Both the position numbers and the translations under genes were made by a program. DNA of 5,691 bases from a virus. Taxonomy: Duplodnaviria; Heunggongvirae; Uroviricota; Caudoviricetes. Where the stretch lies: positions 1-5,691 of IMG/VR virus record IMGVR_UViG_648276670_000007, one strand, 5' to 3'. Below the pieces are notes generated by a model that saw only the letters and a list, made by a program, of their open reading frames with translations, searched no databases and was not told where the DNA came from. Positions 1 through 5,691 of the stretch are shown here, piece by piece (positions within the stretch are counted from its first letter, which is position 1; the number at the start of each line of letters is the position of its first letter).

Positions 1-390
1 TTACTCTTTTTTCTCCGTATCTACATCGGGTTCATCAGCAAATAGCTTGCCCTGCATCCGATCCAGTTCTTCTTTTCTTACCCGCTTAACCACGCTGTAG
101 ACCCACTGAAGCGAAACACCAAATTTGCGGGCCAGTTCATGGTGATTACGTCCGTTAAACTCCCTGAAGATTTCCCGGTCGCGCTGACTGACCTTCCATA
201 CCATGCCCATCGGGAAATAAACGTTTTGCCCGCCCCAGACCTGCATCATGCGGTTCGCGACGGCCTGACCAATCTGGTCGGCAATTGCGGGCTCAATATC
301 AATAATCTCGCGAACGGTCTCAGAGGTATGCTGTGCCAGTTCCACCAGGAGTTCCGGCCCTTTACTTCGAAACTGATTCAGGTCGCTCAT
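1..390 (-). CDS. mor: Mor/C-family transcriptional activator (middle operon regulator) of a Mu-like phage, complete 129 aa
   Basis: ATG at 390 with GGAG 6 nt upstream, TAA stop at 1-3. The C-terminal part (YFPMG...RDREIFREFNGRNHHELARKFGVSLQWVYSVVKR) matches the Mor/C family HTH signature as I recall it. Sits immediately after a GemA-like gene, as in Mu. Overlaps the gemA 3' end by 29 nt. Confidence 0.85.
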   Translation of the reverse strand: MSDLNQFRSKGPELLVELAQHTSETVREIIDIEPAIADQIGQAVANRMMQVWGGQNVYFPMGMVWKVSQRDREIFREFNGRNHHELARKFGVSLQWVYSVVKRVRKEELDRMQGKLFADEPDVDTEKKE

Positions 391-814
391 GTTTTACTCC
401 CGCAGCTCTGCGCTGCCACTTCTTCAGTTTCTCAATAACACTGCTTGCCTGTTCAGTATTGAGCCAGCGCAGGGCGCTGATGCCCGTTTCCCGCTTGATC
501 CACCGCGCTAATGCATTTTCTGAACGGTCACGAACAATGCCGGCAGCAGCCATTTCAAGCCATAGCGCACGGATTTTCCTGGATTGCGGATGGTTATCCA
601 GCGGTAAACCGGAGCTGGCTTTTCCTGCAGGCCTAACGCGAAAGCCTTTCCTTTTCATGGATTCCAGCACGCAGTTTAGTTGTGTGGTATCCATTCCTTT
701 GGTTGAGGCTTTACCGGTCAGCCCCTGTAACATCTGGCGGTAGGTGTCTTCATCCATACCCAGTTCATTACGGGCAATATGAATGAGCTGGATAAGACGT
801 TGTTTAGTCATCAT
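362..814 (-). CDS. gemA: GemA-like (Mu gp16, DUF1018) regulatory protein
   Basis: N-terminal TKQRLIQLIHIARNELGMDEDTYRQML resembles the GemA/gp16 family signature. Start chosen at ATG 814 because AAGGAG lies 5 nt upstream; the longest ORF starts at ATG 853 but has no SD. TAA stop at 362-364. Confidence 0.75.
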   Translation of the reverse strand: MMTKQRLIQLIHIARNELGMDEDTYRQMLQGLTGKASTKGMDTTQLNCVLESMKRKGFRVRPAGKASSGLPLDNHPQSRKIRALWLEMAAAGIVRDRSENALARWIKRETGISALRWLNTEQASSVIEKLKKWQRRAAGVKHERPESVSK

Positions 815-1019
815 CGTTGCTCCTTCTGCCTGCATCACCGATATAATCGACATATAAAGGAAGTGCCACAGGCCAGCACAGGAACATCACCGACCAGCTA
901 ATCCAGTAACCGGCACCACTGTAACGTGAATAAAACCCTGAACGGCGGTGCAGTTCAGCAGTACACCAACCGACAAAACAATACCAGAACAGGGCACATA
1001 CAACAGATTCAGTCGTCAT
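804..1019 (-). CDS. small hydrophobic (probable membrane) protein, about 71 aa
   Basis: Internal ATG at 1019 of the 804-1175 ORF, chosen because the longer form would overlap the neighbouring ORF by about 167 nt. Two hydrophobic segments (VVCALFWYCFVGW, YWISWSVMFLCWPVALPL) and an acidic C-terminus. A G-rich tract lies 9 nt upstream. Start is uncertain. Confidence 0.35.
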   Translation of the reverse strand: MTTESVVCALFWYCFVGWCTAELHRRSGFYSRYSGAGYWISWSVMFLCWPVALPLYVDYIGDAGRRSNDDD

Positions 1020-1239
1020 TCTGAATATCCCCCCAACTGATATGAATATTACGGGCAGCAATGACAGGGTCTTTATTCCACCATGCACCTGACATGTATT
1101 TTTCAACCTGTTCGCGTCCGGCAATAACACCAATTGTGATCCCCGGCCTGACGTTCTTAAAAAAGGCGCGGGCAAAAAGGTATCTGGCAGATATTCGGCA
1201 GGCTTTTAATTTCCGGCTGTTACCTGATAACGTAATCAT
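1009..1239 (-). CDS. hypothetical protein, 76 aa
   Basis: ATG at 1239 overlaps the TGA of the upstream gene (ATGA coupling), with GGAGG 4 nt upstream. No recognisable family. Confidence 0.4.
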   Translation of the reverse strand: MITLSGNSRKLKACRISARYLFARAFFKNVRPGITIGVIAGREQVEKYMSGAWWNKDPVIAARNIHISWGDIQNDD

Positions 1240-1919
1240 CTGGCCTCCAGTTTCTGCTGTTCCCGCCCACTGACCGGTCGGTGCAGTCTGACGTTCTGCC
1301 CTTCTCGAAACCCCGCATAGCGCGAGGCGTCGCCATTGCGACTTCTTCCCGGTTTACGCGCCCTGGTGGTTTGCGTCTGCGGGTATTTATGTTCCAGCCA
1401 CTGCTGCATCAGTTCACGTTCGTCATCGGTCAGGGCGAAGGACTGTATTTCACTGATAACGGCCAGCACCCAGCCTTCAGCAAACTGGTCTCCACGGCTG
1501 GTGCGGGTGGCGGTTTTTATTCTTTTGTTCTGTGCACTGATATACTGCTGACGCGCCTTTTTCAGCTGACGGGCCAGCACTTCCCAGGTGTACGCGGCCA
1601 GTGCGGCCCGTTCCCGGTTGCCGTAGAACCCCACACCCGGATATGTGCCGGGGTGAATGATGGAGTTAACACCAAATGCCTCGCGGATGATGTTCATCAG
1701 GCCCAGCATGTAGCGCGGCGGACGGAGGCTGCCTGTCGGCCAGTAGTGACTGATGGTTTCATCAATATCACTCATGGCGATGTCGGAATGTGTGATGCCG
1801 TGAACATCCATCAGTTTACGGGCGCGGCGCAGTGCCAGAGCAGCCTCATGCGGGTTGCCGGATGCTGCCAGCGCCAGCAACTTTTTCAGTTTCTCAATGT
1901 GCTTATCCTGGTCTGTCAT
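1236..1919 (-). CDS. DUF2786-like phage protein, 227 aa, with a basic Arg-rich C-terminal tail
   Basis: N-terminal HIEKLKKLLALAASGNPHEAALALRRARKLMDVHGI resembles the DUF2786 motif as I recall it; unverified. ATG at 1919 overlaps the stop of the upstream small ORF (ATGA). Confidence 0.5.
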   Translation of the reverse strand: MTDQDKHIEKLKKLLALAASGNPHEAALALRRARKLMDVHGITHSDIAMSDIDETISHYWPTGSLRPPRYMLGLMNIIREAFGVNSIIHPGTYPGVGFYGNRERAALAAYTWEVLARQLKKARQQYISAQNKRIKTATRTSRGDQFAEGWVLAVISEIQSFALTDDERELMQQWLEHKYPQTQTTRARKPGRSRNGDASRYAGFREGQNVRLHRPVSGREQQKLEAR

Positions 1920-2116
1920 TGTTCAGTATCTCCGGTATTTTTTTGCTGTTCCCATGCCCGAACAGCGTCGGACAGCTCTTTCAGGCTGTATGCTGCTTTA
2001 AGCTTTTCCCATAACCACTGCGTCACCACGTGGGTCAGCAGGGCAACCAGGGCGAATCCGGCGCAGATGCACACGGCTATACCAGTAAGCAGGAAAGCCC
2101 ATACCACAATTTCCAT
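1916..2116 (-). CDS. small single-pass membrane protein, about 66 aa
   Basis: Internal ATG at 2116, 7 nt after the stop of the upstream gene; the longer 1916-2353 form would overlap that gene by 230 nt in another frame. One clear TM segment (IVVWAFLLTGIAVCICAGFALVALL) followed by a charged C-terminal helix. Confidence 0.4.
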   Translation of the reverse strand: MEIVVWAFLLTGIAVCICAGFALVALLTHVVTQWLWEKLKAAYSLKELSDAVRAWEQQKNTGDTEQ

Positions 2117-2123
2117 AATGGTG

Positions 2124-2507
2124 TCAGTCACTGGTACCTCCTGTGGTGGTCTGGTCAGGTGCGGCGTGTGTCCTGTGGTATTTCCTGAACCAGTGGTACA
2201 GGGCAGCCAGTTTTCTGTCGATAACTTCAGTTTCCCTGTTGAAGTATTCCTGTGCCTCTTTCTCCTCTTGCGGCGGCAGTTCGCCCGGCCCACACAGGGT
2301 GTTGTAAATCCACGCCATGCCGTTCCTGGCATCACCGGTGGCCCGCCACTCAATCACTGCAGCTTTCATGACGACCAGATTGCGCCCGAAGTACAGGTCC
2401 ACCTCTTCAAATCTCTTGCGCAGGTATTCGTTTTCGTCTTCCAGTACCCGAATACGCTGTGCAGCATCTTCCGGCGTCAGTTGTGGCGTCTGTTCGGTGC
2501 GGTTCAT
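2124..2507 (-). CDS. hypothetical protein, 127 aa, acidic N-terminal region with coiled-coil character
   Basis: ATG at 2507 overlaps the stop of the MazG-like ORF (ATGA). No recognisable family. Confidence 0.55.
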   Translation of the reverse strand: MNRTEQTPQLTPEDAAQRIRVLEDENEYLRKRFEEVDLYFGRNLVVMKAAVIEWRATGDARNGMAWIYNTLCGPGELPPQEEKEAQEYFNRETEVIDRKLAALYHWFRKYHRTHAAPDQTTTGGTSD

Positions 2508-2806
2508 ATGATTTCTCCGGTGTATGTGACGCCCAGCCGTGCGGCAAGGCGTTCCAGTTTTTTCTGTTTGTGGAAGTCAATCAGCCGGTCCATTCCCTGA
2601 AGGCGCAGCTGCTCTGTCATGATTTCCACGTCTGCCAGCTCTGCCGCGAGGTCACTTTCGCTGCCCTGTCCGTTCAGGTTGCGGGCGGCACTGGCCGCCA
2701 GTTCAGCGGCCTCTTCTGTCAGTTTCAGGGCCTGTGCGTCCGGCCCGAAACGCTGCAGGGCCAGACGGTAGAGGGCGGTGCGGGTGAGTTCGGTGTTCCG
2801 TGTCAT
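2504..2806 (-). CDS. MazG-like nucleotide pyrophosphohydrolase domain protein, 100 aa
   Basis: Two acidic helices (LTEEAAELAASAAR and DLAAELADVEIMTEQL) resemble the metal-binding EExxE / ExxD motifs of small all-alpha MazG/HisE-type NTP pyrophosphatases. GAGGG lies 6 nt upstream of ATG 2806. Assignment is from motif recognition only. Confidence 0.5.
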   Translation of the reverse strand: MTRNTELTRTALYRLALQRFGPDAQALKLTEEAAELAASAARNLNGQGSESDLAAELADVEIMTEQLRLQGMDRLIDFHKQKKLERLAARLGVTYTGEII

Positions 2807-2815
2807 GCCGCGCCC

Positions 2816-3088
2816 TCAGTGTTTCCGGTCGACGGTGATGTTCAGGCCGCCTTCTGCAGTGGTTTCCACCCGGTACGGCACCTCGTGCTCTGCCGTGTGG
2901 GTGAGTGTGTTCATCAGTACCTGCAGGGCAGCCTCCTTTCCGTTGGTTGCCACAATGGCCTGCGTGGCCATGCTGATTAGCGCCGTCAGGACGTGCTTCA
3001 CATCGGTGAGGTCGCGGCATTCACACTCGTTGACATAGTGTTCAACAAGAGTTCGGGTGCGCTGTCGTGCTTCCTGTGGGGTAATCAT
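2816..3088 (-). CDS. hypothetical protein, 90 aa
   Basis: ATG at 3088 overlaps the TGA of the zinc-ribbon ORF (ATGA coupling). No recognisable family. Confidence 0.5.
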   Translation of the reverse strand: MITPQEARQRTRTLVEHYVNECECRDLTDVKHVLTALISMATQAIVATNGKEAALQVLMNTLTHTAEHEVPYRVETTAEGGLNITVDRKH

Positions 3089-3279
3089 TGCGCGTCCTCC
3101 CTGTCAGGGCGGGAGAATTCCATGACGGGCACGTCCGCCGAAAAATGCTGGCTGCAGTACGGACAGACCAGGGTGACACGTACTGCAGGTACGTGGTACT
3201 TACCGGACATCACGGCGATGGCGCTGTGAAAACGCAGGGCTGTTATATCCCTCTCGCACTGAATACATTTAAATATCAT
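3085..3279 (-). CDS. small zinc-ribbon protein, 64 aa (CxxC...CxxC)
   Basis: Cys pairs at residues 5/8 and 39/42 (CIQC ... CPYC). AGGAGA SD 8 nt upstream of ATG 3279. First gene after the gam-downstream intergenic region. Confidence 0.55.
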   Translation of the reverse strand: MIFKCIQCERDITALRFHSAIAVMSGKYHVPAVRVTLVCPYCSQHFSADVPVMEFSRPDREDAQ

Positions 3280-3297
3280 AATTTAATTCTCCTCTGT

Positions 3298-3334
3298 TTC
3301 CGGCGTGCAGAAGCCCACGGCGCTGACGCCGGAA
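3298..3334. promoter_or_regulatory. intergenic stem-loop (9-bp perfect stem TTCCGGCGT/ACGCCGGAA, 19-nt loop) between gam and the zinc-ribbon gene
   Basis: Inverted repeat read directly from the sequence. No U-run follows it on either strand, so it is not a canonical intrinsic terminator. It ends 4 nt before the SD of the downstream ORF and is flanked by an AT-rich tract (3335-3370). Confidence 0.4.
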
Positions 3335-3376
3335 TAAAAAAGAAAATGTTTTTATTAAATAATTAACGTGGTGTGT

Positions 3377-3907
3377 TTACTGCACATCCTGCTCAAAAGG
3401 AATTATTGAAAAATCCTCAATATCACTTTTTATGGTAATACCGGGAATATTTTTCACGGCGTCCTTTTCATTCAGGATAGCGTCTTTATTTATTTCCTCC
3501 TTTACACGGATAAAGCGCTCAAGCCCCAGACGTCTCAGTAATTCAATAACATTATCCGCCCCACGGATACTGACTGATGGCGGACGGTTTCGCCACTGCA
3601 CCTCGCCGGTGGTGAGGTTAGCGAACTTCACCTTCCCGTTGCCGGTCAGTTCATCACGGTGTGCCTCACACCATGTCTGAATACCGGACTGCAGTTCGGC
3701 CATGCGTTTTTTCAGGCTCTCGGTGAGCGGGGCATAACGTGCGGTGATATCGCCAATGGCGTCATTCATTTCTGTTTCAGCCCTGACCAGTTCACGGTGT
3801 GCGTCACCGAGCAGTCTGATGCCCTCAATGACCTCTTCACGTGTCCCCGGCACCCAGAGTGCTGCTGCGGCCTTGATACGTTTTGCACCTTTTGTACTTT
3901 TTGCCAT
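3377..3907 (-). CDS. gam: Gam-like host-nuclease inhibitor (Mu Gam family), 176 aa
   Basis: Size, position downstream of B, and motifs (MAKSTKGAKRIKAAAALWVP..., RPPSVSIRG..., GITIKSDIEDFSIIPFEQ) match Mu Gam as I recall it. ATG at 3907, TAA at 3377-3379. Confidence 0.8.
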   Translation of the reverse strand: MAKSTKGAKRIKAAAALWVPGTREEVIEGIRLLGDAHRELVRAETEMNDAIGDITARYAPLTESLKKRMAELQSGIQTWCEAHRDELTGNGKVKFANLTTGEVQWRNRPPSVSIRGADNVIELLRRLGLERFIRVKEEINKDAILNEKDAVKNIPGITIKSDIEDFSIIPFEQDVQ

Positions 3908-3934
3908 TTTTTATGATTTCTCCAGTTGTGCTGA

Positions 3935-4204
3935 TTACCACAAAGATTCCGGCCACACGACGCGACAGCCGTGCAGTTCGAAAACGCCCTGACGGAAATA
4001 TCCCCTGTGGTCATGTCCGGTATACAGATAACAGGCCTTTCCCTGCTCAAGCATGCGCATGCAATGCGCACTCCTGGAAACGCGGATGACAGGTTTGTTA
4101 CCCCTGATGGTGATGCTTTGTACATCCGTGTTCGTCGCCTTAAGCGCCATAATGGCTGACTGCACTTTACTGATTTGCTGGTTGATACCTGTGGTGGATT
4201 TCAT
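3935..4204 (-). CDS. hypothetical protein, 89 aa, in the position of Mu kil/cim
   Basis: ATG at 4204 lies 2 nt after the TAA of the B-like gene; GGGG lies 8 nt upstream. No recognisable family; the positional analogy is the only basis. Confidence 0.5.
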   Translation of the reverse strand: MKSTTGINQQISKVQSAIMALKATNTDVQSITIRGNKPVIRVSRSAHCMRMLEQGKACYLYTGHDHRGYFRQGVFELHGCRVVWPESLW

Positions 4205-4206
4205 TA

Positions 4207-5103
4207 TTAAACCCCTTTGACAACGTCAGCGTTGACCTGTGGAACCCCGATTTCAGCGGCCAGATTCATGGCGGCTATTACCAGGTTACTGACGGCCAGC
4301 GGATACAGCAGGCTGACCATATTTTTACGATGACTTCCCGGATTGCTCAGGCGGGTACGTATGGCATCCACTGCGCTGGCGTCCATAATGTCCGTCAGTT
4401 GTTTACCGGCCCGTTGCAGTTTGAACGTCAGAAATTCTTCAAGGTGATTGTCCAGAGGCAGAAGTTCGACCACCTCACAGCGCTGAACGACTTCGCGGAC
4501 TTCCATGTTGCGTTCAGACAGTTTTGTCGCCAGTTCCGGCTGGCCAATCAGCACGATGGACAGCAGTTTTTTGAAACCGGACTCCAGCTCAAAAAAGCGT
4601 TTGAGGTGTTTCAGTGTCGGAATGGGCAGACTGTGGGCCTCCTCAATCACCAGAACGTGGCTGAACCCCGCCTGGCTGCTGTCTTTCAGGACGCGATGCA
4701 ACTGGCGAAAGCGGGCGTCCTGACTGCGTCTGATGCTTTCCAGTGGCGCGATGGTACTGATAATGGCTTCGGCAATAGCTGCTGCCTTCAGGGTTTTCCC
4801 TTTCACATCGTTGTCTTCCATGGCAATGATGTATGGCTCGATAACAATTACCGGCGCATTCTCGCGGTTGATACGTTCAGTCAGGTCACGGCGCAGCGTG
4901 GATTTACCCGCACCGGACTCACCGATGACGGCCATAAACCCACCATGACGGGCTGTCTGGTACAACGCCTCACGCACGTAGCGAATGTCTGGTGTGGTGA
5001 ACACATCATCAGAACCCTGCATGGCTTCGTCGACGAACGGGTCACGGAAAAGACCAAACGCTTTTTTGGTTGCTGGAAATAACACCTGTTTTTTGAGTAA
5101 CAT
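4207..5103 (-). CDS. AAA+ ATPase, MuB/TniB-like transposition target-capture protein, 298 aa
   Basis: Walker A GESGAGKST at residues 61-69 and Walker B-like hhhhEE (HVLVIEEAH) at about 149-157. GAGGA SD 7 nt upstream of ATG 5103. Followed by kil-position and gam genes, as in Mu. The reading frame stays open for a further 42 codons upstream, up to a TGA at 5230-5232 (see findings). Confidence 0.8.
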   Translation of the reverse strand: MLLKKQVLFPATKKAFGLFRDPFVDEAMQGSDDVFTTPDIRYVREALYQTARHGGFMAVIGESGAGKSTLRRDLTERINRENAPVIVIEPYIIAMEDNDVKGKTLKAAAIAEAIISTIAPLESIRRSQDARFRQLHRVLKDSSQAGFSHVLVIEEAHSLPIPTLKHLKRFFELESGFKKLLSIVLIGQPELATKLSERNMEVREVVQRCEVVELLPLDNHLEEFLTFKLQRAGKQLTDIMDASAVDAIRTRLSNPGSHRKNMVSLLYPLAVSNLVIAAMNLAAEIGVPQVNADVVKGV

Positions 5104-5143
5104 ATTCTCTTCCTCACTGAGGCTCGTTTTATCTGTGGTACCC

Positions 5144-5175
5144 GCTGTACGGGGCGTGGCCGCGCCCTGTACAGC
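5144..5175. repeat. 32-bp GC-rich near-perfect palindrome (GCTGTACGGGGCGTGGCCGCGCCCTGTACAGC)
   Basis: 28 of 32 positions are self-complementary; the 4 mismatches are two T/G pairs that would be G-U wobbles in a plus-strand RNA. Lies 41-72 nt upstream of the B start codon, between B and the IS end. Confidence 0.6.
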
Positions 5176-5227
5176 ATCAAAACTCTTCGCTGTATCAATC
5201 CCCTGACTTTCCAGCCAGGACGCAAGA

Positions 5228-5691
<464 letters not shown>

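Follow-up and report, generated by a model that had tools for sequence, protein, structure and literature searches.

A stretch of 5,691 nucleotides (nt) from a virus record of IMG/VR (IMGVR_UViG_648276670_000007, positions 1 to 5,691; hereafter the window) carries two genes for small hydrophobic proteins, here named orfA and orfB. Every convincing gene of the window lies on the minus strand, and the genes are closely packed. It represents the early operon of a BcepMu-type (Mu-like) transposable prophage of Escherichia coli, transcribed leftward and extending from a MuB-like ATPase to Mor; an initial annotation of the letters alone had likewise placed the two genes in a phage early region. Positions 1-5227 are identical (100%) to a prophage in E. 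coli MS20655, in which RefSeq annotates the same coding sequences (CDSs) as found in the window, including 216-nt genes for both orfA and orfB. The ExeA-type B protein, the gene order, and the leftward transcription to a genome end just past Mor are as in phage BcepMu, and phage PhiKM, which is 97% identical, is placed under Bcepmuvirus in GenBank. In E. coli MS20655 and E1433, the same prophage lineage disrupts different host genes (torS in one, phoA in the other), consistent with the random transposition of Mu-like phages.

The region 804-2131 is part of a variable slot between the MazG-like gene and gemA. In the direction of transcription, it holds orfB (1916-2131; 71 amino acids, aa), a gene for a 227-aa protein with the Pfam domains DUF2786 (residues 8-44) and DUF7168 (residues 46-189) at 1236-1919, orf76 (1009-1239), and orfA (804-1019; 71 aa), followed by gemA (362-811). 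The start and stop codons of the first four genes overlap by 4-11 nt. The orfB stop overlaps the start of the DUF2786 gene, and the stop of the latter overlaps the start of orf76, in both cases within ATGA, while orfA shares 11 nt with the orf76 stop and 8 nt with the gemA start. This is the layout of translationally coupled genes.

The 5′ end of the operon is interrupted. The segment 5228-5691 is IS100, an insertion sequence of the IS21 family (99.8% identical), and the junction 5227/5228 falls inside the MuB/ExeA-like ATPase gene (4207 onward, minus strand), which thereby loses approximately 48 N-terminal codons. The prophage copy in the window is probably transposition-defective, and since IS100 interrupts the MuB-like gene, the operon is split from its upstream promoter region.

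Gene starts and selection

The gene orfB corresponds to RefSeq CDS WP_000132655.1, and most likely starts at GTG 2131. The initial annotation had placed its start at ATG 2116 and its limits at 1916-2116, while the limits that it gave for orfA (804-1019) hold as described. We rejected ATG 2116 because the RefSeq start, the Shine-Dalgarno (SD) sequence, the family profile, and a second allele all favour GTG 2131. The SD sequence is GGAGG at 2137-2141 of the minus strand, 5 nt upstream of the GTG, and the second allele has GGGAGG in this position. The PHROG family phrog_3958 matches orfB over its full length (1-71/71, E 5.4e-38). The second allele has ATG at the codon matching GTG 2131 and replaces the internal Met6 by Arg. 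Both alleles keep 71 codons, the start, the SD sequence, and the ATGA overlap with the start of the DUF2786 gene. The ratio of nonsynonymous to synonymous substitution rates (dN/dS) of orfB is about 0.40, estimated from fewer alleles than were available for orfA.

The gene orfA (RefSeq CDS WP_000206197.1) matches phrog_6436 with an E-value of 5.5e-16, residues 1-63 aligning to positions 1-63 of the 68-position profile. Its ATG start is kept in homologues. A ribosome-binding-like run of G (GGGGGG, 1029-1034, minus strand) lies 9 nt upstream of the ATG, and homologues keep equivalent GGGGAG or GGGGTGG elements before the start. Across 32 distinct full-length DNA alleles from the fetched loci described below, the median dN/dS of orfA was 0.155 at a dS of 0.51, compared to 0.20 for GemA, and variation by codon position was 32/24/53, displaying a third-position bias. 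Substitutions distributed in this manner indicate that orfA is under purifying selection.

Short ORFs (open reading frames) can arise by chance, and longer in-frame versions of both genes, initiated at TTG, were present in the mechanical ORF list. It could thus be argued that the short ORFs are non-functional or that the long forms are the real genes, the more so as the transmembrane region of orfB is altered by indels or frameshifts in several database variants. We regard this as highly improbable in view of the purifying selection, the third-position bias, the conserved length, start and SD sequence, and the PHROG families, and for orfA the chance-ORF reading is already refuted. The long forms had been described as out-of-frame ORFs whose conservation would speak against the short genes; they are extensions in the same frame that begin at TTG and result from mechanical ORF calling, and they are broken by stops in homologues. 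We rejected the form 804-1175, as stops occur 1-47 codons upstream of the orfA start in diverged homologues and it overlaps the conserved orf76, and the form 1916-2353, as a stop occurs 27 codons upstream in diverged homologues of orfB and it overlaps the conserved orf127. The initial annotation had suggested looking at start codons in homologous prophages as a check of the short forms: the orfA ATG is kept, and so is the orfB start, at 2131. The short forms, and the hydrophobic proteins that they encode, are therefore real and conserved genes, as first proposed. A 439-codon plus-strand ORF (1281-2600; 439 aa), antisense to the DUF2786 gene, orfB, and orf127, was discarded as a shadow ORF, being closed in diverged homologues.

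Membrane character of orfA and orfB

Both proteins had been described as small membrane proteins, a description that is clearly borne out for orfB and is probable for orfA. The scale values given here (KD19, Hessa, and others) are approximate. The orfB protein contains a transmembrane helix at residues ~8-33 (window positions 2033-2110), with a KD19 maximum of 2.63 and a Hessa sum of -2.7. As controls, the transmembrane protein gp20 of Mu gave a Hessa value of -2.3, within the range of orfB, and Mu Kil gave +11.6. The hydrophobicity of all other proteins of the window is far below that of orfB. These predictions show orfB as a single-pass inner-membrane protein with a charged, helical C-terminal part. 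The helix is preceded by 0-1 positive charges at the N-terminus and followed soon after by two Lys, and because of these flanking charges an N-out/C-in orientation is weakly favoured.

The two orfB alleles are approximately 50% identical in their transmembrane halves. At the nucleotide level, the 5′ halves are 61% identical and the 3′ halves 94% identical, like the downstream DUF2786 gene. We rejected the idea that the C-terminal tail is a constrained interaction surface, since the difference reflects a recombination breakpoint near codon 37 and not selection. Many rare database variants of orfB are altered in the GC-rich, repeat-like stretch that encodes the transmembrane segment, by a deletion of 13 residues, local frameshifts, or in-frame indels of Ala/Leu triplets, which suggests a slippage-prone sequence or decay in some lysogens.

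The membrane location of orfA is probable and not certain. The window allele is borderline, with a KD19 of 1.51 and a Hessa value of +3.2, although its abundance of Trp, Tyr, and Phe makes it strongly favourable by the Wimley-White octanol scale. Its hydrophobic segments span residues ~5-21 and 38-57, with the basic loop HRRSGFYSRY between them. All members of the family (64-71 aa) share this plan of two hydrophobic segments of about 17 residues and a loop with a net charge of +2 to +3, and distant members are clearly hydrophobic (Hessa down to -2.1). The AlphaFold model is a two-helix hairpin (helices 3-27 and 34-67) with a mean predicted local distance difference test score (pLDDT) of 67. 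The charge of the C-terminal tail spans -4 to +3 over the family, and the only invariant residues are G17, W49, and P50. A Cys/His metal site was considered and rejected, as C8, C19, and C48 are not kept in distant members.

Pfam returned no family for orfA, and for orfB only unrelated matches below threshold. Neither protein had a significant match to Imm/Sie proteins, holins, Hok-type toxins, or another characterised family in searches of Pfam, NCBIfam, PADLOC, and PDB sequences; membership of a known superinfection-exclusion family, one of the roles first proposed, thus finds no support. As for type I toxins (Hok/Gef, TisB, Ldr), there was no Pfam toxin match, and no Rfam family reached the gathering threshold in the window; the accompanying scan for tRNAs in the window was also negative.

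A further role first proposed was that of Kil-like proteins, meaning that one or both would kill the host or block its division from within the semi-essential early region. The analogy has a basis, as Mu Kil (gp5), lambda Kil, and the two proteins studied here are all small early-region proteins of temperate phages, and kil is carried by the Mu early region. Nevertheless, Kil proteins are soluble division inhibitors (KD19 of 0.78 for Mu Kil) that differ from orfA and orfB in sequence. No match between Mu gp5 and either protein was obtained by blastp at E <= 10, and at E <= 1 there was no Pfam match to lambda Kil or a toxin family. The place in the operon is different as well: the slot directly after B is occupied by the unrelated gene orf89 (3935-4204), and orfA and orfB lie 2-3 kb downstream of B. 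We consider a Kil-like role unlikely.

The length of 71 aa, the one or two hydrophobic helices, and the charged tails also give both proteins a superficial likeness to class II/III holins. A role in lysis timing, as holin, pinholin, or antiholin-like proteins, appears very unlikely to us, as their genes belong to the early operon and precede gemA and mor, at the left end of the genome, with no endolysin or spanin neighbour, and they match no holin family in Pfam or PHROG; early expression of a holin would presumably be self-defeating.

Distribution, mosaicism and proposed role

Loci were collected from IMG/VR via orfA (57) and via orfB (30), and 23 others were collected via GemA alone, from one representative genome per species. 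All window proteins were mapped on the fetched loci, resulting in 63 distinct intervals between the MazG-like gene and gemA. The gene orfA was found in 62 of the 63, always abutting or overlapping gemA, the DUF2786 gene in 54, orf76 in 41, orfB in 24, all of them from E. coli, and orf127 in 4. Eight combinations of presence and absence occurred, and gene content shows that orfA, orf76, the DUF2786 gene, orfB, and orf127 assort independently. Two membrane proteins bracketing the DUF2786 gene and the 76-aa ORF, as first described, are thus what the window displays, but this bracketing is not conserved: judging from these intervals, it is an arrangement of the window and part of the E. coli lineage, and not a conserved module.

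Among the loci retrieved via GemA, an orfA-family gene abuts gemA in 15 of 23 (2 frameshifted). The carriers are Limnobaculum, Mixta, Buttiauxella, Trabulsiella, Pantoea, Erwinia, Intestinirhabdus, Pseudocitrobacter, Apirhabdus, and Xenorhabdus, the last with a gene that is only 39% identical. Photorhabdus retains only a remnant of orfA, and Dickeya and S. diarizonae have other genes at that place. In this set, orfB was found in none of the 23 loci. These comparisons show orfA as conserved across the Enterobacterales prophages of this lineage and orfB as a dispensable, E. coli-specific cassette. A database protein of 119 aa, P0113, runs from an orfA-like N-terminus straight into the GemA N-terminus; it is either a genuine orfA-GemA fusion or the product of a sequencing or assembly error at the overlap.

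An exhaustive profile search with orfA against 1.8 billion representative proteins returned about a dozen clusters of small proteins only, plus compositional matches in giant proteins. Phage records (50,697) contained orfA in three cases and orfB in one. Complete E. coli genomes (5426) contained the DUF2786 gene in 636 cases, some orfB DNA in 533, the window-type orfB allele in 13, and window-type orfA DNA in 208. The remaining E. coli carriers most likely hold an orfA allele with only 42% protein identity.

The boundaries of variation were mapped against PhiKM, using the limits of blastn high-scoring segment pairs and identity in 60-nt sliding windows. The backbone is 95-100% identical in 60-nt windows, with the exception of two sharply bounded islands. 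The first (806-980) covers the body of orfA, with 40-53% nucleotide identity to PhiKM and no gaps, and by this alignment is an exact-length replacement of the orfA allele. In the lineage, orfA alleles at 38-42% identity have been swapped into near-identical backbones. The second island (2054-2519) covers the 5′ (transmembrane) half of orfB and orf127, and is diverged or absent in PhiKM, which lacks orf127, and in most relatives. As orf127 was found only beside the window-type orfB allele, the two appear as a single insertion or replacement cassette.

For Mu-like phages of Pseudomonas, "regions of genomic plasticity" have been described (PMC4378225) in which the early arm harbours short accessory ORFs; a few of these are anti-CRISPRs. 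Both features of such regions were found here, namely islands in an otherwise conserved early-arm alignment and replacement or absence among relatives. That both small ORFs are variable islands fits an accessory, conflict-type role.

The initial annotation had grouped the two small genes with the gene that they flank, and it could be imagined that orfA, the DUF2786 protein, and orfB form one functional module, such as a membrane-tethered, nucleic-acid-binding complex. The genes are adjacent and translationally coupled in the window, orfB, where present, always abuts the DUF2786 gene, and approximately 533 of the 636 E. coli genomes with this DUF2786 gene have orfB DNA adjoining it. Against a module, orfB is missing beside the DUF2786 gene in 31 of 54 intervals and in all of the non-E. 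coli genera sampled, 8 of 63 intervals contain orfA but no DUF2786 gene, orf76 may or may not stand between them, and DUF2786/DUF7168 proteins are common among unrelated phages in which these small genes are absent. We therefore judge a module quite unlikely.

We propose instead that orfA and orfB are membrane-located, exchangeable accessory genes of the early operon that form no unit with the DUF2786 gene, and we assign this interpretation a probability of roughly 0.55. Both would be made only after induction, from the early transcript, via coupling to their neighbours. The orfB protein would probably insert N-out/C-in, leaving a helical tail of about 35 residues in the cytoplasm, and orfA would probably insert as a hairpin with its basic loop on the cytoplasmic side. 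Since it is at these two genes that the operon is hypervariable and exchangeable, their most likely place of action is the inner membrane, in conflicts between phage and host or between phages during lytic growth. Our best guess as to examples would be that they exclude incoming DNA at an early stage, in the manner of Imm, or interfere with a host function associated with the membrane. A role in replication or transposition appears less likely.

Several points weigh against this proposal. The conflict role is deduced solely from variability, dispensability, and membrane character as read from sequence. The orfA window allele is borderline hydrophobic, its AlphaFold model is mediocre, and its topology is not fixed by the positive-inside rule, since the charge of the C-terminal tail varies. 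The retrieval of loci was partly biased, as most were found via orfA or orfB themselves. The operon, cut by IS100, may be silent in the strain of the window, and the scan that detected no promoter-like (sigma-70-like) site on the minus strand of positions 1-5300 was a crude consensus scan. Finally, orfA is near-universal and tightly coupled to gemA, so that it could have a core role linked to GemA.

This last point can be extended into an alternative, in which orfA is not accessory and is a conserved partner of GemA, maybe linking the modulation of host gene expression by GemA to the membrane. The position next to gemA in 62 of 63 intervals, the adjacency kept in the orfA carriers retrieved via GemA, including Xenorhabdus at 39% identity, and the run of P0113 from orfA into GemA all speak for such a partnership. 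On the other hand, gemA occurs with no intact orfA in BcepMu, in Mu, and in the relatives from Photorhabdus, Dickeya, and S. diarizonae, P0113 may be a sequencing error, and orfA alleles at 38-42% identity were swapped beside gemA genes that are 96-99% identical, and thus there is no co-variation. We hold this partnership to be doubtful. Equally tentative is a combination of both ideas, in which orfA would be a lineage-wide small membrane partner of GemA that acts as a swappable specificity determinant, of the immunity/exclusion type or as a GemA tether, and orfB a second, E. coli-specific conflict cassette.

Returning to the proposal of exchangeable accessory genes, orfA and orfB are ordinary accessory genes, already annotated as hypothetical proteins, and represent a known kind of phage feature. 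If they do act in exclusion or host takeover, two membrane effectors would be added to the poorly charted early regions of BcepMu-type phages, and such prophages occur in about one in nine complete E. coli genomes (DUF2786 gene in 636 of 5426). The practical value of our findings lies in annotation, namely a corrected orfB start, the rejection of the long forms, and the separation of DUF2786 from its small neighbours; no long-standing question is made testable by them.

Neighbouring genes and comparison with known systems

The DUF2786 protein is securely assigned, scoring 43.0 bits for PF10979 (DUF2786) and 91.3 bits for PF23771 (DUF7168) against Pfam gathering cut-offs of 23.9 and 25.5, respectively. 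Its AlphaFold model (pLDDT 80.8, predicted template modelling score 0.71) displays an alpha/beta core preceded by a helical hairpin at the N-terminus. The DUF7168 core resembles a KH domain at the level of the fold only; there was no conserved G-x-x-G at residues ~58-68 in the homologue alignment, and no Pfam KH match. The initial annotation had pointed out a conspicuously basic, probably disordered C-terminal tail, suggestive of nucleic-acid binding. The tail is indeed basic and probably flexible: residues 186-227 contain 12 K/R against 4 D/E (tail net charge of about +8), and the last ~38 residues (190-227; window positions 1239-1352) have a pLDDT of 47-57. Yet it holds conserved motifs. Among homologues as distant as 35% identity, G203 and G218 never change and R188, L212, E220, Q221, and K223 are at least 90% conserved, and because of these conserved positions the tail is better seen as a functional element than as a random basic stretch. 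In the literature mentioning DUF2786 we found no functional data. The window protein is a full-length member of the DUF2786+DUF7168 proteins of phages and prophages (PF10979, PF23771, phrog_421), with the same architecture of about 230 aa. These are common in unrelated phages without small genes of the orfA/orfB type, and nothing sets the window protein apart from them.

The product of orf76 is a basic, non-hydrophobic protein (KD19 0.96) that matches phrog_3681 over its full length (E 2e-53). In one prophage (IMG/VR 2512047041_000005; L018 / L078), orf76 is split by an insertion of ~1.24 kb, probably an insertion sequence element.

The remaining genes of the window, all on the minus strand, were assigned by scanning Pfam and PHROG. 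Immediately behind the B-like ATPase lies orf89 (3935-4204; 89 aa, phrog_2041), a close relative of which is named "HI_1482 family" in RefSeq. It had no significant similarity to Mu Kil, and would be the positional candidate if any gene here is a kil analogue. The gene for Gam (3377-3907) is separated from the next gene by the sole sizeable intergenic gap of the operon (3280-3376, 97 nt), which lies where the window is richest in A and T (GC 0.43) and may be a regulatory or host-factor binding site. It is followed by a gene for a 64-aa protein (3085-3279; phrog_3401) with CxxC at residues 5-8 and 39-42 and 26-58% identity in distant relatives, which is probably a zinc ribbon, a 90-aa gene (2816-3088), and the MazG-like gene (2504-2806). 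Next comes orf127 (2124-2507), which encodes a soluble protein of 127 aa, assigned to phrog_18739 (E 1e-60) and by synteny; it covers only the C-terminal part of this 416-position profile. A second match (E 5e-92) is to a PADLOC model of 127 positions that bears the label "DpdH". We did not adopt this label, as genuine DpdH/I are described as BrxC-like, and judged the model to be mislabelled, probably representing a prophage protein. Beyond gemA, the operon ends with mor (1-390).

The early regions of BcepMu and Mu display the same order of A, B (ExeA-like), small genes, (Gam), a MazG-like pyrophosphatase, variable genes, GemA, and Mor, and the transcription of BcepMu likewise proceeds toward the left genome end. 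The content of the variable slot differs. In BcepMu it holds gp3, HU, and DUF3164, in Mu gp11-gp14, and neither has homologues of orfA, orfB, orf76, or the DUF2786 gene. When the window was compared with the Mu early genes, only Mor, GemA, and Gam matched.

T4 Imm, P22 SieA, and HK97 gp15 are small inner-membrane superinfection-exclusion proteins of phages. Among these, T4 Imm, a product of the early lytic phase, shares with orfA the presence of two hydrophobic segments. The likeness does not extend to sequence or profile similarity, and the orfA and orfB genes are probably silent in the lysogen.

A further parallel is with the plasticity-region ORFs of the Pseudomonas aeruginosa D3112/DMS3 group (PMC4378225). 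Common to both are short ORFs (34-100 codons in that group) in sharply bounded, non-homologous islands of the early arm, which are present, absent, or replaced among close relatives. The genes described here belong to a BcepMu-type lineage of Enterobacterales and have other sequences, and the known anti-CRISPRs of the Pseudomonas group are soluble. The two also differ in that orfA is hardly ever missing, its variation taking the form of allele replacement and not of presence or absence.

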